A stretch of DNA of 64,000 bases. Origin: Alphaproteobacteria bacterium (GTDB lineage Bacteria > Pseudomonadota > Alphaproteobacteria > GCA-2746255). The position numbers and the translations under genes are program-made. A model generated the notes under the pieces. The model worked only from the letters and a program-made list of their open reading frames with translations. It made no database searches and was not told where the DNA came from. The stretch lies in assembly GCA_021296325.1 (NCBI GenBank), contig JAGWAR010000004.1, positions 53,126-117,125 of the forward strand, written 5' to 3'. Shown one piece after another: positions 1 to 9,769 of the stretch; the stretch's first letter is position 1, and each line of letters starts with the position of its first letter.

Positions 1-541
1 CGCCGCCAAAGGCTTCCCGCCAGGTCTGACCGAGCGCGAGCCGCGCCTCGATAGCGACGCGTTCGCGCCCGATCGTCGTCGCCAGCGTGTTCAGCCCCAG
101 CGCGATGCCGGTCATCGTGTTGCCGAGGATCATGCCCAGAATCGGAATCGCATAGCGCGGGTGGTACCAGGGGTCCGGCTGCAACTGGGTGGTCAGCGCC
201 AGCACGGTGACGATCATGGCCGCCATCAGCATGCTCGTCGTGCCAAGGCCGTAGGTCCACCAGCCGGCGAGGCGGCGTTCCTGGCGGGCGAGGATCTCGC
301 GTCCGGCGAACAGCACCATGGCAAGCGCGACCAGCCCCGTGAGATAGGGCGAGACGATCGCGAACAACGCCTTCAGCACCAGGCCGACCAGAAACAGCTG
401 GGCGACCATGCGCAAGGCGGCAATCAGAAGCTGGCCCTCGAGCCGCAGGCGCAAGATGAAGGAAAGCCCGGCGTTCAGGAGAATCAGCAGCGAGGCGAGA
501 ACCAGGTCGCCATAGCTAAGCGCAATTATGCCGTCTGCCAC
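1..541 (-). CDS. fetB: FetB/YbbM-family (UPF0014) ABC-type permease, N-terminal ~180 codons; gene runs off the window start
   Basis: Hand translation of the minus strand from GTG at 541 (absent from the ORF track because it has no stop in the window): MADGIIALSYGDLVLASLLILLNAGLSF...RYAIPILGMILGNTMTGIALGLNTLATTIGRERVAIEARLALGQTW. It is multi-TM and resembles E. coli FetB as I recall it. The GTG overlaps the upstream ATPase stop (GTGGCAGACGGCATAA). Confidence 0.65.
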   Translation of the reverse strand, partial: MADGIIALSYGDLVLASLLILLNAGLSFILRLRLEGQLLIAALRMVAQLFLVGLVLKALFAIVSPYLTGLVALAMVLFAGREILARQERRLAGWWTYGLGTTSMLMAAMIVTVLALTTQLQPDPWYHPRYAIPILGMILGNTMTGIALGLNTLATTIGRERVAIEARLALGQTWREAFGG

Positions 542-1134
542 GTTTCCTCGCTTTCCAGACGCCCCTGCTTGAGATGCAGGCAGCGTTTCGCAAGGCGCTT
601 GCCCTGACGTTCGTCATGGGTGACGAAAAGAATCGAAACGCCTTCGGCCAGCCGCGCCTTCAACACCTTTTCGACCGTGGCGATGCTGGTCTCGTCCAGC
701 CCCGAGGTCGGCTCGTCCAGCAGCAGGACGGCCGGGCGCAACAGCAGCGCGCGGGCCAGCGCCAGCCGCTGGCGTTCGCCGGTGGACAGCCGGGCGACGG
801 TCCAGCCAAGCGCTTCCTCGGAAAGGCCGAGCCGGTCGAGCATCTCGCCCACCGCGCCGTCCTTCGGAAAATGGTCGCTGACCCGTTCCGCCCACCAGCC
901 GGATTCGGCGGGCAGGTACGTCACCATCCGCCGCCATTTCGGGGCCGGGAATTTCCCGCGTTCGGCGCCGAACAGGGTGATGGCGCCCTCGTTGGGGTCG
1001 AGGTCGGCGATGGCGCGCAGAAAAAGCGTCTTGCCGGCGCCGCTCGGCCCCATGACGGCGACGCATTCGCCGCCGCCGATGTCCAGGTCGATCGGGGCCA
1101 TGTTCGGGGTGCGAAGCGCAGCGATTTTCAGCAT
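526..1134 (-). CDS. fetA: ABC transporter ATP-binding protein, FetA/YbbL-like
   Basis: C-terminal 202 aa of ORF 526..1797, starting at ATG 1134 (MLKIAALRTP...). Walker A GPSGAGKT, signature LSTGERQR, Walker B LLLLDEPTS. Translationally coupled to the downstream permease. Confidence 0.8.
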   Translation of the reverse strand: MLKIAALRTPNMAPIDLDIGGGECVAVMGPSGAGKTLFLRAIADLDPNEGAITLFGAERGKFPAPKWRRMVTYLPAESGWWAERVSDHFPKDGAVGEMLDRLGLSEEALGWTVARLSTGERQRLALARALLLRPAVLLLDEPTSGLDETSIATVEKVLKARLAEGVSILFVTHDERQGKRLAKRCLHLKQGRLESEETWQTA

Positions 1135-1248
1135 GCTTCCCTTGTAGCGAATTGCCCCATCCCCGTCACCGTCCTCGGGGCATGAGGCCTTTCCACGGGG
1201 TGGAAAGCCAAGTAGGTTTTTCTCCGCCCACCGCCCGCAGGAGGCCCC

Positions 1249-1956
1249 TTGGACGACTTTTCGACCGCCTTTTCCCTTGCCTTCGACATGATCGGCCGGC
1301 TCGATCCCGATCTCGTCGAGATCGTCGTCCTTTCCCTCAAGGTCAGCCTGACGGCGCTGCTGGTCGCCGCCCTGATCGCGCTGCCCTTGGGGGCGGCCGT
1401 CGCCCTCTTTCGCTTTCCGGGCGTCGGCGTCCTTACCGTGCTGCTGAACGCGATGATGGGCCTGCCGCCGGTCGTCGTCGGCCTCGTCGTCTATCTCCTG
1501 ATCTCCCGTGCCGGCCCGCTCGGCGTGCTGGGACTCCTGTTCACGCCGACGGCGATGATCATCGCCCAGACACTGCTGATCGCACCGATCATCGCGGCGC
1601 TGACGCGCCAGGTCATCCTCGATCTTTGGGAGGAATATGGCGAACTTCTGGTTTCGCTCGGCGTCCACCGGGCGCGCGCCATCGCCACGCTGCTGTGGGA
1701 CGGGCGCTTCCGGGTGCTGACGGTCGTGCTGGCGGGCTTTGGGCGCGCCATGGCGGAAGTCGGCGCGGTGATGATCGTCGGCGGCAACATCAACCACGTC
1801 ACCCGCGTCATGACGACAACGATCGCGCTGGAAACCAGCAAGGGGAATCTCTCGCTGGCGCTCGGGCTCGGCATCATTCTCCTGACGCTTTCCCTGCTGA
1901 TCAACGGAGCCATCTACGTGGTCGGCGAATGGGCAGCCCGGAGGAACGCGGCATGA
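1249..1956 (+). CDS. tupB: ABC transporter permease, TupB-like (tungstate uptake family)
   Basis: 235-aa ORF with a TTG start 4 nt after AGGAGG (1239-1244). Multi-TM. LDPDLVEIVVLSLKVS and GPLGVLGLLFTPTAMIIAQTLLIAPII resemble TupB (COG4662) permeases as I recall them. An overlapping ATPase and moaA follow. Confidence 0.6.
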   Translation: MDDFSTAFSLAFDMIGRLDPDLVEIVVLSLKVSLTALLVAALIALPLGAAVALFRFPGVGVLTVLLNAMMGLPPVVVGLVVYLLISRAGPLGVLGLLFTPTAMIIAQTLLIAPIIAALTRQVILDLWEEYGELLVSLGVHRARAIATLLWDGRFRVLTVVLAGFGRAMAEVGAVMIVGGNINHVTRVMTTTIALETSKGNLSLALGLGIILLTLSLLINGAIYVVGEWAARRNAA

Positions 1957-2672
1957 CCCCGTCGATCTTCCCGCTGAGAATCGAGAACCTCGTATACGAA
2001 GTCGGCGAACGGGCGTTGCTGCGCGGCATCACCGCCGAGATCGGCGCCACGCAGCGCACGGTGATTCTGGGTCCCAACGGCGCCGGCAAGAGCCTGCTGC
2101 TCCGGCTCTGCCACGGCCTGCTCGCGCCCACCGGCGGCCGGGTCGTCTGGCAGGGCAGGAAGGAAGGGGCGGCGATCCGCGATCAGGCGATGGTATTCCA
2201 GCGGCCGGTCACGCTGCGCCGTTCCGTTGCCGCCAACGTTGCTTACGCGCTCGCCATCCGGGGCGTGTCCCGTGGGCCGCGCCGGCTGCGCGTCGACGAA
2301 GTGCTGGCCCGCACCGGGTTGACGGCGAAGGCCAGGGTGTCGGCGCGCGTCCTTTCCGGCGGCGAACAGCAGCGCCTTGCGCTGGCCCGGGCCTGGGCGT
2401 CGCGGCCCCAGGTCCTGTTCCTGGACGAACCCACCGCCAACCTCGACCCGGCGGCGACCCGCGCCGTCGAAGAGGTCATCCTCGAGATTCAGGCAAGCGG
2501 CACGAAAATCGTCATGACAACCCACGACCTTGGCCAGGCGCGCCGCTTGGGCGAGGAAATCCTCTTCCTCTGCGACGGCCGCCTGGTCGAACGCAAACCG
2601 GCGGACCGCTTCTTCGCCGGCCCGGAAAGCCCGGAGGCCGCGGCCTTTATCGAGGGTCGGCTCACATGGTAG
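1953..2672 (+). CDS. tupC: ABC transporter ATP-binding protein, TupC-like
   Basis: 239-aa tail of ORF 1152..2672 from ATG 1953 (ATGA overlap with the tupB stop). Walker A GPNGAGKS, signature LSGGEQQR, Walker [12 protein letters not shown]. Confidence 0.65.
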
Positions 2673-2736
2673 ACTTGCCCTTGGACACGAACCGCCAGTT
2701 TCCCGTCGATGGGGAAGGAAAAGGAGCCGACGCATC

Positions 2737-3726
2737 ATGATCGATCCCTTCGGACGCGAGGTTACCTATTTGCGGGTCTCCGTCACGGATCGCTGCGACC
2801 TTCGCTGCGTCTATTGCATGTCGGAGGACATGAGCTTCCTGCCGAAGCGCGAGTTGCTGACGCTGGAGGAACTCGATCGCGTCTGCAGCGCCTTTATTTC
2901 CCTGGGCGTGCGCAAAATCCGCATCACCGGCGGCGAGCCGCTGGTGCGCCGCGGCATCCTCACGCTCTTCGAGAGCCTCGGCCGCCACCTGAAGACGGGG
3001 GCGCTCGACGAACTGGCCCTCACGACGAACGGCAACCACCTTGCGAAACACGCCGCCGCCCTTTACGCGGCCGGCGTGCGCCGCGTCAACGTCTCGCTCG
3101 ACACCCTGCAGCCGGACCGCTTCCGCGCGATCACGCGCTGGGGCAAGATCGAAACCGTGCTGGAAGGCATCCGCGCGGCAAAGAAGGCGGGGCTTCGCGT
3201 CAAGATCAACACGGTGGCGCTGAAAGGCGTCAACGAGGACGAATTCGATCGCCTGCTGGCCTGGTGCGGGGCGGAAGGATTCGACTGGACGCTCATCGAG
3301 ACGATGCCGATGGGCGAGATCGAACAGGACCGGATGGACCAGTACCTTTCCCTGAAGGACGTGCGCCGCCGACTCGAGGAACGCTGGACGCTTCGCGACA
3401 GCGCGCATCGCAGCGGCGGGCCCGCCCGCTACGTGGAGGTCGCGGAAACCGGCGGCCGCGTCGGCTTCATCACGCCGCTTTCCCACAATTTCTGCGAATC
3501 CTGCAACCGGGTACGGCTGACCTGCACCGGGCGGCTTTACATGTGCCTGGGCCAGGAAGACCAGGCCGATCTCAAGACCCCCGTGCGCACGGGCGAAAGC
3601 GACGCCCCCCTGATCGACGCCATCCATGCAGCCATCGGCCGCAAACCCGAAGGCCATGATTTCGTTATCGAACGCAGGAACGCGGCCCCCGCCCTTGGCC
3701 GCCATATGAGCGTCACCGGCGGCTAG
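2737..3726 (+). CDS. moaA: GTP 3',8-cyclase MoaA (radical SAM, molybdopterin/tungstopterin synthesis step 1)
   Basis: ATG 2737 preceded by GGAAGGAAAAGGAG. Radical-SAM CDLRCVYC, second cluster motif [19 protein letters not shown]-terminal GG. 329 aa. Confidence 0.92.
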
Positions 3727-3737
3727 CTTTCGGCCGT

Positions 3738-4055
3738 TCAGCCCCCGCCGCGCTGGGTGCGCAGCACGAAATACTTCATGAACACGTCGACGTCCTCTTC
3801 CGTATAGCCGTGGAAGGTGAAAGTGATCTCGGTGTCCTGCATCTTGATGGAAGCGCCAAGCTTGCGCGTCTTTTCCGGGGCCAGGTCGAGGGTGATCTTC
3901 TTTTCCCCGTTGTCGGCCACTAGGCGCGTGCCCTCGATCTTCACCGGAAGCGGTTCGAAGAACTTGGGAACGGCGCGAAAAATTTCCTTGTGGGAATAGG
4001 CAAGCTCAAGAACGCGGCGGTGGACGTCGCCGTCTTTGGTTGTCATTTCCGCCAT
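3738..4055 (-). CDS. Hypothetical 105-aa protein ending RGGG; last gene of the aor operon (AorE position)
   Basis: ATG at 4055 shares one nt with the upstream TAA (TAATG). MAEMTTKDGDVHRRVLELAY...FMKYFVLRTQRGGG. GC3-rich codons. I recognise no family. Confidence 0.7.
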   Translation of the reverse strand: MAEMTTKDGDVHRRVLELAYSHKEIFRAVPKFFEPLPVKIEGTRLVADNGEKKITLDLAPEKTRKLGASIKMQDTEITFTFHGYTEEDVDVFMKYFVLRTQRGGG

Positions 4056-4306
4056 TATCCGCCCGCCAGTGGTGGCCACATCGCCAGCGTATCGCCATCC
4101 TTCAATGTGTGCGAGGCGAAATCGCCCGGCGTGACGTAGGCGCCGTTGACCAGCGTCATGTGAATCATGTTCGTCGGCACCCCCTGGCGTTCGACGACGC
4201 TCTGCACGGACGCGCCGTCCTCGACTTCGATCTCGGCGGCGTTGTCCTTCGTGCCCTCGGGCAGGTAGTCCTTCAGGGTCGTGTAGAATTTCAGCGTAAT
4301 TTTCAT
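4055..4306 (-). CDS. MoaD/ThiS-family sulfur-carrier-like protein (AorD-like)
   Basis: 83 aa from ATG 4306 (ATGA overlap with the aorC stop). MKITLKFYTTLKDYLPEG...DGDTLAMWPPLAGG, with the diagnostic C-terminal Gly-Gly. Confidence 0.8.
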   Translation of the reverse strand: MKITLKFYTTLKDYLPEGTKDNAAEIEVEDGASVQSVVERQGVPTNMIHMTLVNGAYVTPGDFASHTLKDGDTLAMWPPLAGG

Positions 4307-5562
4307 GGTAGCGTCTGTGCCTGTGCCTTTGCCAGATAAGCCGACATCAACTGCGTTGGGTCGGATTTCAGTTTTTCCTTCCACGGCCCAAGATGGGTCT
4401 CCGTCTGAATGAGCCCGCGAAGCACGCCGACATGCTGGGTCAGGCCTAGCGCCTGGGCGCCGACGAGCACGTCGTCTTTGAATTCAAGGCGAAGGTAACG
4501 GAAATTCTCCTCGTCCAGAAGCTCGGCGTGATCGCCGCCCTCGACGCCCATCCACTGGCCGAAGGAGCTTGAAATCAGCCCCACCGTGTCCAGCACGTTC
4601 ATGTTCAACGAGCCCGGATGCGGGGTCTGCACGCCGGCCATGTTCTGGGCGGCGATGCGGCCATGCTCGGTGGCCGTCGGCTGGATGGCCTGGACCTCGT
4701 AGCCGCCGGTCGAAAAATCGCGCCCCTTCGCGCAGTCGCCGGCCGCGTAGATGTCAGCGACGCTCGTCTCCATGTGTTCGTTGATCAGGATGCCGCCATC
4801 CGTCTCGACGCCGCTGCCCTTAAGGTAGTCAAGCGCCGGCGCCACTCCGGTCGAAGCGATGATCAGATCCGCCTCCAGCTGCTGGCCGTCCTTCGTGTGG
4901 ATCAGGTAGCGCGGCTTCTTGTCCTTCCGCTTCTCGATCTTGGTGACCTGGGTCGAGGTGTGGACGGTGATCCCCTTCTTCTCGCACCAGCGCTTGATGA
5001 GATTCCCGCAGGTCTCGTTCATCATGCGCGGCACCATGCGGTCGCCCATCTCGACGATGGTAAGCTCGACGCCGGTCGCGGCGATCGCCTCCATGATGAT
5101 GCAACCGATGAAGCCAGCGCCCATCTGCAGGACCTTCGTGCCCTTCTTGCACCGCTTGGCAATCAGGCGCGCGTCCGCCAGCGTCCAGCAGCCGGTGATG
5201 TCGGGGTCCTCGATGCCGGGCACCGGCGGGCGGATGGGGAAAGCCCCCGTCGCCAGCAGCAGCTTGTCGTAACCGGCCGTCTTGCCGCTCTCGAGGTGCA
5301 GTTCCTTCTTCTTCGGGTCGATTTTCGTCACCTGCGCCTGCAGATAGTCGATCCGGTGCTTCTTGTAATGATCGGCGTCCGTTTTGAGATAGGTGCCCTC
5401 TTCCTTGACGTTGCCGATCAGGTAGTAGGGGATCGCCATCCGCGAATAGGGGGGCTCGGGCTCGCCGCCGATCAGCAGGATTTCATCTTCCGCCCGCAGC
5501 TTGCGCAGGATTCCGGAAGCAACCACGCCGGCCGGGCCGGCACCCACGATGACGTGTTTCAT
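4303..5562 (-). CDS. aorC: FAD/NAD(P)-binding pyridine-nucleotide-disulfide-type oxidoreductase, AorC-like subunit
   Basis: 419 aa. N-terminal VIVGAGPAGVVAS and a second Rossmann motif LQMGAGFIGCIIME. Lies directly downstream of the AOR catalytic subunit. Confidence 0.8.
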   Translation of the reverse strand: MKHVIVGAGPAGVVASGILRKLRAEDEILLIGGEPEPPYSRMAIPYYLIGNVKEEGTYLKTDADHYKKHRIDYLQAQVTKIDPKKKELHLESGKTAGYDKLLLATGAFPIRPPVPGIEDPDITGCWTLADARLIAKRCKKGTKVLQMGAGFIGCIIMEAIAATGVELTIVEMGDRMVPRMMNETCGNLIKRWCEKKGITVHTSTQVTKIEKRKDKKPRYLIHTKDGQQLEADLIIASTGVAPALDYLKGSGVETDGGILINEHMETSVADIYAAGDCAKGRDFSTGGYEVQAIQPTATEHGRIAAQNMAGVQTPHPGSLNMNVLDTVGLISSSFGQWMGVEGGDHAELLDEENFRYLRLEFKDDVLVGAQALGLTQHVGVLRGLIQTETHLGPWKEKLKSDPTQLMSAYLAKAQAQTLP

Positions 5563-5675
5563 CTTTCGGCTTCCCCCGTGATGGCCCCGGTCCGCCCTGG
5601 CCGGGAAAAAATCGGAGAAGGCACGCGTTCGCGCCTTCTCCGATGTATTGGTGATTCACCCACCTTGAAAACGGC

Positions 5676-7520
5676 TTATACGTTGAGCCGCTTAATCGTG
5701 TCGTTCGATGGCTGCCCGTCCGGCGTCCAGCCGCGCAGCTCGTAATATTCCGGAAGCATCTTGTCGAGCAGCGCCACCAGGCCCTTGCCGACCCCGGTTT
5801 CGGCCGGCGTCTCCAGAAGTCGCTTCGGCAGCGTGTCGTCGGCCGTCGTCAGGCCGGCCTTGTTGTTGAACAGGCGCTCCAGGTTCCACACCCGCTCGCC
5901 AAGTTCCATCATCTTTTCCATCGACCAGTCGCCTTCGCTGTCGGCCTGGACCAGCTGCTGGTACTGATCCAGCGTCCAGGCGAAGTTCGGGAACATGCAA
6001 AGACCGGTCGAATCGACGGCCGAGGTCGTGTCCTGGGCCAGCTTCGTGATCTCCGCTTTGCCTTCCGTCGTCAGCGGGTCGAGCTTGGTGCCGACGCCGA
6101 AGATTTCGACGGCGATCGTGTAGCCCCGCAGGTGGCAGGCGCCGCGGTTGCTGGTCGCGTAGGCTAGGGACATGCCCTGGGCGCCGCGCGGGTCGTAGGC
6201 CGCAAATTCCTGGCCCTTGACGGTCATGGCGACCTCGGGATGGCCGTATTTCTCGCAAAGCAGCTTGGAGCCAAGGCCGAGGTCCTTGCCGAAACCTTCG
6301 CCCTTGCCGGCCAGTTCGACGGCCTCGACGAGGGCTTCCGCCGACCCGAATTTCAGCTTCAGGCCGCCGGTTTCCTTGTCGGTGATGTAGCCCCGCTCGT
6401 AAAGCTCCATGGCGGCGGCCAGCGAGGCGCCGAAGGAGATCGTGTCCATCCCCTGTTCGTTGCAGATGAAGTTCGCGTAGGTCAGCGCCTCGAGATCGTC
6501 GATGCCGCAGTCGCCGCCCATCGCCCAGGAGGACTCGTATTCAAGCCCGCCGGAGGCGTTGTGGTATTGCGGCTTGTCCTTCACGGAGAAATGATTCGGG
6601 TCGATGACGCTGACCCGTCCGCAGGCGATCGTGCAGCCGAAGCAGGCGGAATTGCGCACCATGTTCGTGCGTCCGTCCGTCTCGCGCACCTCGAACATCG
6701 CCTCGCCGCCGATCTTGTCGGCGCCTTCGAACTGGACCTGCTGATGGTTGCGGGTCGGGTAGATGCCGGTGGCGTTGATGACGCTGGTCACGCCTTGGGT
6801 GCCGTACTGGGTGAGGCCGTTCGTAAAGGCGCTTTCCTTGAGGTCCGTCTTCGTGGCCTGGGCGACCTGCATGAACTCGCGGGGGTTCTCGACCTTGACG
6901 CCGGTCGTCCCGCGGACGGCCACCGCCTTCAGGTTCTTCGAGCCCATCACCGTGCCGACGCCGGAACGCCCGGCCGCCCGGTGCAAATCGTTTACGATGC
7001 AGGCGTATTTCGAGCCGGTCTCGCCGGCCACCCCGATCGAGGCGACCCGGATTAACGGGTCCTGATGGGTCTTCTTGATCCACTCCTCCGTCTCCCAGAC
7101 GCTTTTGCCCCAAAGCTTGTCGGCCGGTAGGATACGGACGTCGTCGTCGTTGATCATGAGGTAGACCGGCTCTTTCGCCCGGCCTTCCAGGATCAGCATG
7201 TCGTAGCCCGCGAATTTGAGCTCGGCGCCGAAGAAGCCGCCGGAATTCGAGCACGCGATGGCGCCGGTGAGCGCCCCTTTCGTCACCGCCACGTAGCGGC
7301 CCGAGGTGGACGCGCTGGTGCCGGTCAGCGGGCCGGTGGCCAGGATCAGCTTGTTGTCGGGCGCGATGGGATCGACCTTGGGGTCGATTTCCTCATACAG
7401 GTATTTCGACGCCAGGCCGCGCGAACCGAGGTAAAGCTTCGCCCACTCCATGTTGAGGGGCTCCGTCTCGCAGGTTCCCTTCGTCAGATTGACCCGCAAA
7501 ATCTTCCGATGCCACGTCAT
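5676..7520 (-). CDS. aorB: Tungsten-containing aldehyde:ferredoxin oxidoreductase family catalytic subunit (AorB-like)
   Basis: 614 aa. N-terminus MTWHRKILRVNLTKG...GSRGLASKYLYEE is typical of the AOR family. [4Fe-4S] motif CFGCTIAC (CxxCxxxC), plus NRGACHLRG. Confidence 0.9.
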   Translation of the reverse strand: MTWHRKILRVNLTKGTCETEPLNMEWAKLYLGSRGLASKYLYEEIDPKVDPIAPDNKLILATGPLTGTSASTSGRYVAVTKGALTGAIACSNSGGFFGAELKFAGYDMLILEGRAKEPVYLMINDDDVRILPADKLWGKSVWETEEWIKKTHQDPLIRVASIGVAGETGSKYACIVNDLHRAAGRSGVGTVMGSKNLKAVAVRGTTGVKVENPREFMQVAQATKTDLKESAFTNGLTQYGTQGVTSVINATGIYPTRNHQQVQFEGADKIGGEAMFEVRETDGRTNMVRNSACFGCTIACGRVSVIDPNHFSVKDKPQYHNASGGLEYESSWAMGGDCGIDDLEALTYANFICNEQGMDTISFGASLAAAMELYERGYITDKETGGLKLKFGSAEALVEAVELAGKGEGFGKDLGLGSKLLCEKYGHPEVAMTVKGQEFAAYDPRGAQGMSLAYATSNRGACHLRGYTIAVEIFGVGTKLDPLTTEGKAEITKLAQDTTSAVDSTGLCMFPNFAWTLDQYQQLVQADSEGDWSMEKMMELGERVWNLERLFNNKAGLTTADDTLPKRLLETPAETGVGKGLVALLDKMLPEYYELRGWTPDGQPSNDTIKRLNV

Positions 7521-7538
7521 GGTGTTCTCTCCTGAGGT

Positions 7539-8045
7539 TCAGTGCCCGGCGGGCGCGCTCGGCTTGGCCGCCGCCGTGGTCGTGCCGGTGTCCGTTTTGG
7601 CGGCCCATTCCCGCATCTTGTCCAGCCCGGTCCAGTTCGCGTCCACATAGGTGATCGCTTCCGTCGGGCAGGCCTTCGCGCAGGCCGGATCGCCGCCGCA
7701 AAGATCGCATTTGATGACTTTTCCGCTCGACTGGTTGTAGTTCACCGTGCCGAAGGGGCAGGCGATCGTGCAAACCTTGCAGCCGACGCAGGTCGCCTCG
7801 TCCACCACCTTCGCGCCCGTCGTCGCGTCCATCTTGATGGCGTCGACCGGGCAGGCGTGGAGGCACCAGGCTTCCGCGCATTGCGTGCAGGTATAGGGAA
7901 CGAAACGGCCTTGTTCTTCGAAGTGGAAAATCTTGATGCGGGAGTGGGCGGGGTTGAACGATCCCTCCAGCTCGTAAGCGCAGGCCATTTCACACTGAAG
8001 ACAGCCCGTGCATTTGTTGGGATCGATATTTAGGGATTTCTGCAT
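7539..8045 (-). CDS. aorA: 4Fe-4S polyferredoxin subunit (AorA-like)
   Basis: 168 aa from ATG 8045 (MQKSLNIDPNKCTGC), RBS GGAAGGGGAAGGA. Four cluster motifs: CTGCLQCEMAC, CTQCAEAWCLHACP, CVGCKVCTIACP, CDLCGGDPACAKACP. Confidence 0.88.
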   Translation of the reverse strand: MQKSLNIDPNKCTGCLQCEMACAYELEGSFNPAHSRIKIFHFEEQGRFVPYTCTQCAEAWCLHACPVDAIKMDATTGAKVVDEATCVGCKVCTIACPFGTVNYNQSSGKVIKCDLCGGDPACAKACPTEAITYVDANWTGLDKMREWAAKTDTGTTTAAAKPSAPAGH

Positions 8046-8097
8046 TCCGTTCCTTCCCCTTCCAGCACTTTTCTTGAAAGCATCCTGTTCTGCTAGA

Positions 8098-8126
8098 AAA
8101 CTAAGAGCCGGCCCCGGACCTGTCAA
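8098..8126 (-). promoter_or_regulatory. Candidate sigma70 promoter of the aor operon
   Basis: On the minus strand: TTGACA (8126-8121), 17 nt, TAGTTT (8103-8098), about 50 nt upstream of the aorA ATG. Sequence match only. Confidence 0.35.
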
Positions 8127-8249
8127 TCAAGGCCTTGGCGGGACCAAGCCTGCACTGCCCGGATGACCTCTTTATTATATAGAGGCGGGCACAGGGGACA
8201 GAAACACCGGCCTGCCTATGTTTTTTTATGTTTTTTTCCCCAAATTTTC

Positions 8250-8411
8250 CTAGTAGCCGGTTTCAAGGTCGGCCAGGGTCTCCGGGTCCAGTTCGAACGC
8301 CTCGCCGCAATGGGGGCAGGCAAGTTTTCCTGCCTCGTTGCGCGGCGTCTGTTGCAGAGGGTAGCGGTAGGTGCAATGCCTGCATTTATAAAGAACGTCG
8401 GGAAGCTCCAT
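8250..8411 (-). CDS. Small zinc-ribbon protein (53 aa)
   Basis: ATG 8411. MELPDVLYKCRHCTYRYPLQQTPRNEAGKLACPHCGEAFELDPETLADLETGY, with two CxxC pairs. Confidence 0.55.
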   Translation of the reverse strand: MELPDVLYKCRHCTYRYPLQQTPRNEAGKLACPHCGEAFELDPETLADLETGY

Positions 8412-8608
8412 CCCGCTTTCCGGCCCATCTTCCGCCACGGCTTGTCTCCTTGTCCCCCGTTCCCGCGAACCCAGCATAGGTTTCGGGCCACCCCCCGGCA
8501 ACGGTCCAAATTTAAGCTAAATCCGGCCGAAAAGACCGGCCCCGGCGTGCCCGCCCGCAACGAAGCATTAACCGCGGCGCATCTACACTTTCGGCTGGAA
8601 CCGCAAAT

Positions 8609-9769
8609 GTGGGCAAGAAAGTCATGTCCGCCAGGCACGCAACGCAGGGGCTTACCAACGCGGACGTCGCGCATCTCCTGAGCGACCCCTCGGAGACCAT
8701 CCGCGCGGAAACGGCGTCCAAGATCGCCGCCCAGTTCGAGTCCGGTCGCCTGAGCGACACGGAACGCGAACTGGCCGAGCAGATCTTCCGCGTCATGGTC
8801 CAGGATGCGGCGTTGCGCGTCCGCGAGGCCTTGTCCCATCACCTGAAGGCGTGTCCCTTCCTGCCGCACGACGTGGCGGTGACGCTGGCGAAGGACGTCG
8901 ATTCGGTCGCGCTTCCCATCCTCGAGGCAAGCGACGTGCTGACCGACGTCGACCTGCTCGAAATCATCTCCAGCCAGAACGTCGAAAAACAGCTCGCGAT
9001 CACGCGGCGCAAGCGCGTCTCCGAGGTGGTGTCGGAAGCGCTGGTCGAAACCGGCGAAGAAGCCGTCGTCATCAGCCTGGTCGGCAACAAGGGGGCCGAA
9101 CTTTCCGAAGGCACGCTGCACAAGGTGCTCGACACCTATGGCGAGATCGAGGCGGTCCAGGCCCCTATCGTCAAGCGCGTCAAGCTGCCGGTCGCGATCT
9201 CTGAACGCCTGGTCACCCTGGTGACCGACAATCTGCGCGAACAGCTGATCACCAAGCACGATCTGCCGGTCTCCGCCGCCAGCGACCTCGTCATGCAGGC
9301 GCGCGAGCGCGCAACCCTCGCCCTGCTTGATCCGGACGCGGGCGAATTGTCGGCCGAGACGCTTGTCTATCAGCTACACGAGCACGACCGCCTGACGCCC
9401 AGCATCATCCTGCGCGCCGCCTGCACCGGGGACATGGACTTCTTCGTGGCCAGCATGGCGATCCGGGTCGGCATCCCCATCCCGAACGCCTACCAGCTGA
9501 TCTTCGACAAGGGCTATCTGGGGCTGAAGGCGATCTACCAGCGCAGCGGGCTGCCCGAAAATCTCTACCCGGCCTTTCGCGTCGCCGTCGACGTGGCGAA
9601 CGAGACCCAGTATGACGGCGAGGATTTCGACCGGGAACGCTACAACCGGCGCATCATCGAGCGCATCCTCACCCAGTACGAGAATTTGCGCAGCGACGAC
9701 ATCGAATACCTGCTGGGCCGGCTCACCAAGATCGGCGACAAGGTCGAGGCCGTGGCAGCCGGCGCTTAA
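8609..9769 (+). CDS. DUF2336-like helical repeat protein
   Basis: 386-aa ORF with strong GC3 bias. Its size and helical-repeat character match alphaproteobacterial DUF2336 proteins as I recall them. The start may be the internal MSARH (8624). Confidence 0.6.
   Translation: MGKKVMSARHATQGLTNADVAHLLSDPSETIRAETASKIAAQFESGRLSDTERELAEQIFRVMVQDAALRVREALSHHLKACPFLPHDVAVTLAKDVDSVALPILEASDVLTDVDLLEIISSQNVEKQLAITRRKRVSEVVSEALVETGEEAVVISLVGNKGAELSEGTLHKVLDTYGEIEAVQAPIVKRVKLPVAISERLVTLVTDNLREQLITKHDLPVSAASDLVMQARERATLALLDPDAGELSAETLVYQLHEHDRLTPSIILRAACTGDMDFFVASMAIRVGIPIPNAYQLIFDKGYLGLKAIYQRSGLPENLYPAFRVAVDVANETQYDGEDFDRERYNRRIIERILTQYENLRSDDIEYLLGRLTKIGDKVEAVAAGA

Follow-up and report, generated by a model that had tools for sequence, protein, structure and literature searches.

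A predicted AorABC-type tungsten oxidoreductase operon converging on tupB-tupC-moaA in an uncultured alphaproteobacterium, with the linked tupA1 deleted and a TupA paralogue on another contig

The aor operon and its enzyme

The DNA considered here is a stretch of 64,000 nucleotides (nt) from an uncultured alphaproteobacterium (contig JAGWAR010000004.1), hereafter called the window; coordinates without a contig or locus name count from its first letter. Near its start two sets of genes on opposite strands converge, a minus-strand operon, aorA-aorB-aorC-aorD-aorE, and a plus-strand unit, tupB-tupC-moaA. The operon very probably specifies a Class III tungsten oxidoreductase of the Aromatoleum AorABC type, for which the opposing unit would supply metal and the first pterin step, while the binding protein of the transporter is most likely the product of an unlinked gene, tupA2, the linked gene tupA1 having been deleted. 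The layout was established from a listing of open reading frames (ORFs), domain scans and direct reading of the junctions.

The operon begins with aorA (7539..8045, minus), whose product of 168 amino acids (aa) is a polyferredoxin with four [4Fe-4S] motifs. It is followed by aorB (5676..7520, minus) for the predicted tungsten-pterin catalytic subunit of 614 aa (AFOR_N 272 bits, AFOR_C 456 bits), which is the sole AFOR_C gene in the genome, and by aorC (4303..5562, minus) for a flavin adenine dinucleotide (FAD)/nicotinamide adenine dinucleotide (NAD) subunit of 419 aa (Pyr_redox_2 201.7 bits). Further downstream, aorD (4055..4306, minus) encodes a MoaD/ThiS-like protein of 83 aa that ends in LAGG and exceeds the cut-offs of Ub-Mut7C (45.8 bits) and ThiS (34.8 bits against 22.5), and aorE (3738..4055, minus) encodes a protein of 105 aa with the C-terminus RGGG. 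The stop codon of aorC overlaps the start of aorD by ATGA, and aorD and aorE overlap as TAATG. The domain calls of the original prediction, which had been made from the letters of this DNA, agree with these results: a polyferredoxin with four cysteine clusters, a protein of the aldehyde oxidoreductase (AOR) family with the motif CFGCTIAC, a Pyr_redox_2 flavoprotein and a ThiS/MoaD-like protein. Its coordinates were also right for the other genes, except that aorA starts at the ATG at 8045, with the ribosome-binding site GGAAGGAA, and not at the upstream TTG at 8126.

Comparison with solved structures placed all three subunits with 8C0Z, the cryo-EM structure of Aromatoleum aromaticum AorABC. 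AorB matched chain A over its full length with 872.6 bits, followed by other AOR-type structures (626, 587 for the archaeal AOR 1AOR, and 559 bits), WOR83 (378), FOR (287), BamB (180) and WOR5 (162 bits); in this score ranking, which is the basis of its placement, archaeal AOR, FOR, BamB and WOR5 fall so far below 8C0Z that the catalytic subunit belongs with AorB. The best match of AorA was chain C (273.5 bits), with residues 1-156 aligned to chain residues 35-190 of 192, and residue 1 fell on the first native AorA residue in 8C0Z, supporting the start at 8045. The four cysteine motifs and the C-terminal filament helix region of AorA align to chain C as well, including DANWTGLDKMREWAAK against DADWTGLARMQAWAAK; in A. 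aromaticum this helix mediates filament formation (PMC10413684). AorC matched chain E with 451.1 bits over residues 1-415, the runner-up reaching 147 bits. The motif CFGCTIAC occupies residues 293-300 of AorB, and C293, C296, C300 and C508 are invariant in five AorB sequences of the class. The earlier call of an AorABC-type operon is thereby borne out for every subunit of the enzyme. The last two genes of the published operon, whose order is likewise aorABCDE, are described as encoding putative maturation factors (PMC6365974, PMC9295118), so that aorE, formerly listed as encoding an unknown protein, is a described member of the aor operon. In a 2026 classification, the A. aromaticum enzyme (AaAOR) is assigned to Class III (WorL, WorS, WorN), clade 87 (PMC13328260).

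Enzymes of this type are common, and the cluster adds one more instance of the known AorABC kind. A pattern scan that took a single genome from each prokaryote species turned up at least 597 stretches encoding relatives. The best 80 of them are 53-67% identical, and their hosts include Alpha-, Beta- and Gammaproteobacteria, Holophagaceae and NC10, among others. The order aorA-B-C-D is found in most of these 80 loci. All six species genomes of the window's genus carry the aor cluster, and the layout of the whole block is the same throughout the genus and in a close relative (AorE 88% identical), on whose contigs independent gene calls gave the same lengths from AorA to AorE and from MoaA back to TupB (168, 614, 419, 83, 105, 329, 239 and 235 aa).

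Homologues of AorE stand directly after aorD in 38 of the 54 loci with a candidate ORF at that position, and 36 of these 38 end in (R/K)GGG; AorD ends in GG in 61 of 64 loci. The homologues were collected by an iterative search over ORFs downstream of aorD, which was used in place of a word-based search that had returned only four close relatives. Sequence searches gave no support for AorE as a MoaD homologue: it has no match in Pfam or NCBIfam, and its profile matches AorD with a probability of 0.1%. A model of the protein (predicted local distance difference test score, pLDDT, 78.7) shows the order beta-alpha-beta5-alpha, and its best fold matches, which have middling scores, are to KA1 (Z 9.3, root-mean-square deviation 2.2, 81 aligned residues) and to CoxG/Bet v 1-like proteins (Z 8.8) rather than to a beta-grasp; the 'MoaD related protein' 1V8C matches the model only at Z 7.4. 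Adding aorDE raised the activity of recombinant AOR in published work (PMC6365974, PMC9295118). AorE, with its (R/K)GGG tail and a sequence that is not MoaD-like, is an unexplained putative maturation factor.

The 113-nt spacer between aorB and aorC contains a GC-rich, terminator-like hairpin (5601..5644, minus) with a stem of 15 base pairs, a 4-nt loop and a U-tract, and the fold of the spacer has a z score of -3.3. All five genus sequences compared share this hairpin, and three of its pairs have changed on both sides and still pair. In other taxa, z lies below -2 in 25 and below -3 in 17 of 47 aorB-aorC spacers of 40-300 nt, against 7 and 0, respectively, of 65 control regions upstream of aorA; almost no spacer is left in 12 of 59 loci. 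Hairpins between cistrons are known from other operons, Rhodobacter puf among them, as a means of expressing subunits in unequal amounts. A partial terminator or RNA stabilizer at this position would give AorA and AorB in excess over AorC, as the filament needs. The filament of the enzyme consists of many AorAB units capped by one AorC, in a structure paper that does not use the words "operon" and "terminator" (PMC10413684). That the operon encodes the Aor(AB)n-C stoichiometry in this way is a tentative proposal, to which we give somewhat less than an even chance; if true, it would link the design of the operon to a filament architecture solved in 2023.

The tupB-tupC-moaA unit and cofactor supply

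The converging unit consists of tupB (1249..1956, plus) for an ATP-binding cassette (ABC) permease of 235 aa, tupC (1953..2672, plus) for an ABC ATPase of 239 aa and moaA (2737..3726, plus) for a GTP 3',8-cyclase of 329 aa. All three genes are intact and 82-90% identical to the copies of congeners. The junctions were read in the sequence as they had been described before: the stop of tupB and the start of tupC overlap in the ATGA at 1953-1956, a gap of 64 nt separates the tupC stop (2672) from the moaA ATG (2737), and the moaA stop (3726) faces the minus-strand stop codon of aorE (3738-3740) across 11 nt. No terminator was found in this convergent gap (3727-3737), and the first plus-strand terminator-like hairpins lie inside aorE (4014-4035). 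With so short a gap and no terminator in it, the tupB-tupC-moaA and aor transcripts probably overlap as antisense.

The permease scores 243.5 bits on NF038017 (cut-off 100), a model that detects no other permease in the genome. On the models of named oxyanion permeases it reaches 154.9 bits for TupB (NF041773, cut-off 320), 67 for ModB, 60 for the sulfate permease and 25 for WtpB; the tungstate-type assignment of the original prediction therefore stands as the best score over molybdate, sulfate and WtpB permeases, and falls short at the TupB cut-off itself. The TupC-like ATPase shows the ABC_tran domain, and the domain scan detected no extra C-terminal domain. Eight of the 80 loci contain, no more than 10 kb from aorB, a tupB-tupC-tupA operon with a homologue of the permease (39-55% identical), and a ninth locus has tupC and a tupB (62% identical) at a contig end. 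Another comparison with the permeases of aor-adjacent tupBCA operons gives 47-62% identity, and the ATPases of these operons are 39-57% identical to that of the window. A gene for an HTH/PBP_like regulator lies near six of the eight tupBCA loci, in five of them divergent from tupB. Because the order in this subfamily is B-C-A, a tupA before tupB was never to be expected, and its lack there, formerly taken as unusual, is not; the slot after tupC is here occupied by moaA.

The identity of MoaA was confirmed by its Radical SAM and Mob_synth_C domains and by a score of 364 bits on TIGR02666 (cut-off 284). The gene is single-copy, as tblastn of the genome finds only moaA itself. Genes for moaC and moeA lie on contig C35, and a mobB-moeA fusion, moaD and moaE on contig C3, so that the genome has two MoeA genes, a state given in PMC13328260 as typical where tungsten and molybdenum cofactors are used side by side. 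Besides AOR, the pterin enzymes encoded in the genome comprise MsrP, another member of the sulfite oxidase family and a NasA-like protein whose gene is divided between two frames; a 'Molybdopterin' domain match on contig C16 was discarded as a pterin enzyme, the protein being NuoG. The split gene, for a NasA/FdhA-like molybdopterin oxidoreductase, covers C25:43377-46032 (L119:2377-5032) in two overlapping frames, beside ABC ATPase genes and the gene of an AorC-like flavoprotein (26% identical); it may reflect a frameshift, a pseudogene or a sequencing error.

Divergent from tupB, the predicted fetAB-like pair was found as an ABC ATPase and a permease of the UPF0014 (FetB) family. The fetA-like gene (526..1134, minus; ABC_tran 88 bits) has its ATG at 1134, and the fetB-like gene (1..541, minus; PF03649 167 bits) has its 3' part beyond the window start and is 268 aa long in the gene calls on the close relative's contig. 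Both remain under the cut-offs of the specific models, with 53.9 bits on the FetB model TIGR00245 and 101 bits on the FetA model NF007601 (cut-off 292). The control region between fetA and tupB (1135..1248) holds an inverted repeat, CTTTCCAC-GGG-GTGGAAAG (N3 loop), at 1189-1207, which is conserved in four genus genomes together with the flanking blocks TTGTAGCGAA, CGTCACCG and GTAGGTTTTT. Since one relative has an uncompensated mismatch in the hairpin, the repeat can be explained equally well by a protein-binding site and by an RNA structure, and it may act as an operator or as an attenuator. A search of the genome gave no further relevant site with this repeat. The control region has no Rfam match, and a Moco/Tuco (molybdenum/tungsten cofactor) riboswitch in the tupB leader was rejected because the Rfam Moco motif had no match in 1-9000 at E up to 1; a sigma-70 promoter scan of 1-9000 found none.

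Just left of the window, the fetAB pair is adjoined by a gene at about -1946 to -456 (minus; L029:5179-6669) whose product is an AldA-like NAD(P) aldehyde dehydrogenase (NF007497, 765 bits), and the block therefore carries two unrelated aldehyde-oxidizing enzymes, the AldA-like one and the AOR. On the other side, 204 nt before the start of aorA and sharing its strand, there is an ORF of 83 aa with weak zinc-ribbon matches (8250-8501, minus) that is conserved in two congeners (72% in G005 and 63% in G001); after it comes a DUF2336 gene (8609-9769, plus).

Deletion of tupA1 and the paralogue tupA2

A search found no tupA in the window or in the 12 kb upstream of it. In congeners, a gene named tupA1 lies about 3 kb beyond tupB, adjoining a tRNA-Gly gene; the order in G005 is tupB, fetAB, AldA-like aldehyde dehydrogenase, tRNA-Gly(CCC), tupA1, response regulator and histidine kinase. 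The same flanks align here at 80-85% with G005, and directly behind the 3' end of the tRNA gene (L029:4985-5058 here; junction at window about -2200 to -2060) only 52 nt stand in place of the 1010 nt that hold tupA1, which shows that the linked tupA1 has been deleted in this genome. The A1 copy near the cluster is carried by G003, G004 and G005 and is 61-64% identical to the C16 protein described below; G001 holds both A1 and A2, G000 and G002 show only the A2 type, and no genome of the genus lacks a TupA-like gene altogether. A reading of the linked tupA of G001 as a pseudogene was rejected, since its lone TGA falls outside the gene, in a stretch that had wrongly been added upstream and runs over the tRNA gene, and the gene itself is intact.

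In the genome of the window, the whole-genome search returned one TupA-like gene, tupA2 (226 bits), located on contig C16 (C16:1050-1904, minus; locus L028, C16:1-4222). The best solved relatives of its product are the TupA structures 5MY5 and 3LR1. The protein has a signal peptide and keeps the anion-binding motifs STTST and SRGDDSGT, the arginine of the latter being the key selectivity residue of Desulfovibrio TupA. The tree separates A1 and A2 into two clades and places A2, with moderate support, closer to operon-linked TupA proteins from Beta- and Gammaproteobacteria. The original statement that tupA is absent thus holds locally, around tupB; in the genome a paralogue persists on C16 after the lineage-specific deletion of the linked copy.

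An RND efflux pump gene lies on one side of tupA2, and divergent from it are a Porin_4 porin gene (C16 about 2029-3285) and, after this, a gene for a protein with HTH_17 and PBP_like domains (C16:3317-4222). The PBP_like domain of this regulator matches the oxyanion-binding domain fused to some MoeA proteins, and this gene row recurs in G002. Its make-up suggests that a tup module has been split, with the regulator and the binding protein on this side and perhaps a porin for oxyanions in the outer membrane.

Proposed function, alternatives and comparison with known systems

These genes suggest a division of labor across the block. The tupB-tupC-moaA unit would provide metal and the first step of pterin synthesis, TupBC being the membrane part of a Tup-type oxyanion importer and TupA2 from C16 most likely its periplasmic partner. 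AorB would carry a tungsten bis-pterin and one [4Fe-4S] cluster and convert aldehydes to acids, the four [4Fe-4S] clusters of AorA would pass the electrons to the FAD of AorC, and this FAD would reduce NAD+. AorD and AorE, with their GG and RGGG ends, would assist the maturation of the cofactor. A predicted tungsten enzyme, an importer and the sole moaA would then share one conserved block in an uncultured alphaproteobacterial genus with small genomes. The binding-protein gene of such a module can evidently be swapped quickly for an unlinked paralogue, and a "missing tupA" in a single window does not equal a transporter without a binding protein.

Several points weigh against this reading. TupA2 lies under the TupA equivalog cut-off (226 of 400) and the permease under that of TupB (155 of 320), so that selectivity for tungstate is putative, and the pairing of TupA2 with TupBC, although most likely, is a prediction from the genes. 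Having no second copy, moaA must serve the molybdenum enzymes of this genome as well as the tungsten enzyme; it is a housekeeping gene and no marker of a pterin pathway reserved for tungsten. The genome is a 91.7% complete draft in 39 contigs, in which a further tupA or modBC could lie unassembled. The deletion rests on one assembly, and its tRNA-Gly junction may be a variable site: contigs of the close relative from two independent samples (3' ends of L110 and L111) stop exactly at the 3' end of tRNA-Gly(CCC). Such contig ends fit a junction that is variable or hard to assemble, and the absence of tupA1 could accordingly be an assembly artefact or a strain-level polymorphism in a population that still carries the linked gene. 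However, contig C4 crosses the junction with well-aligned flanks on both sides, no second TupA-like gene emerged from the whole-genome search, and G002 likewise shows only the A2 type, all of which makes this explanation unlikely.

The loss of tupA1 could also be taken to mean that tupBC is a decaying remnant without a linked binding protein and that the metal of the enzyme enters by another route. Such decay is highly improbable beside the intact state of tupB, tupC and moaA, the preserved ATGA coupling, their close identity to the congeners' copies and the persistence of a TupA paralogue that carries a signal peptide and has kept its motifs. More serious, yet still doubtful, is a general molybdate and tungstate gate, with TupBC common to TupA2 and an orphan ModA-like protein and the module not tungsten-specific. 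A search of the six genus genomes found no ModB equivalog, the best match of the ModB model in each being this tupB, and the single permease detected by NF038017 here is in line with a shared gate, as are the molybdenum enzymes MsrP and NasA-like protein encoded by the genome. The ModA-like protein (C18:3327-4127, L027) reaches 136 bits on TIGR01256 (cut-off 62.5); its orphan gene is flanked by a DUF6134 gene and hisI, with znuA and zur-znuC nearby. Nevertheless, we know of no case of ModA docking on TupBC, molybdate may enter by other routes, and the draft genome is incomplete. The linkage of tup and aor in many taxa further points to tungsten supply as the main role.

Three known systems can be set beside this block. 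The spacer hairpin resembles those of the Rhodobacter puf type in being a stable, conserved stem-loop between the genes of abundant subunits (aorAB) and that of a rare one (aorC). The transporter resembles the tungstate transporter TupABC in that TupB is the best of the named oxyanion models and in its short ATPase with ABC_tran only; it differs in a permease and a binding protein under the NCBI equivalog cut-offs, and in a binding-protein gene that is unlinked, on another contig beside porin and regulator genes, whereas the order in the subfamily is usually B-C-A. The closest counterpart is AorABC(DE) of Aromatoleum aromaticum EbN1. Unlike that system, the one predicted here belongs to an uncultured alphaproteobacterium whose genus has small genomes of 1.6-2.3 Mb, and its operon converges on tupBC-moaA. 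The two share the subunit domains, the gene order A-B-C-D-E, the conserved cluster cysteines, the AorA helix and the GG end of AorD, and A. aromaticum, too, has a second aldehyde-oxidizing enzyme, an aldehyde dehydrogenase for which the AOR serves as a backup.

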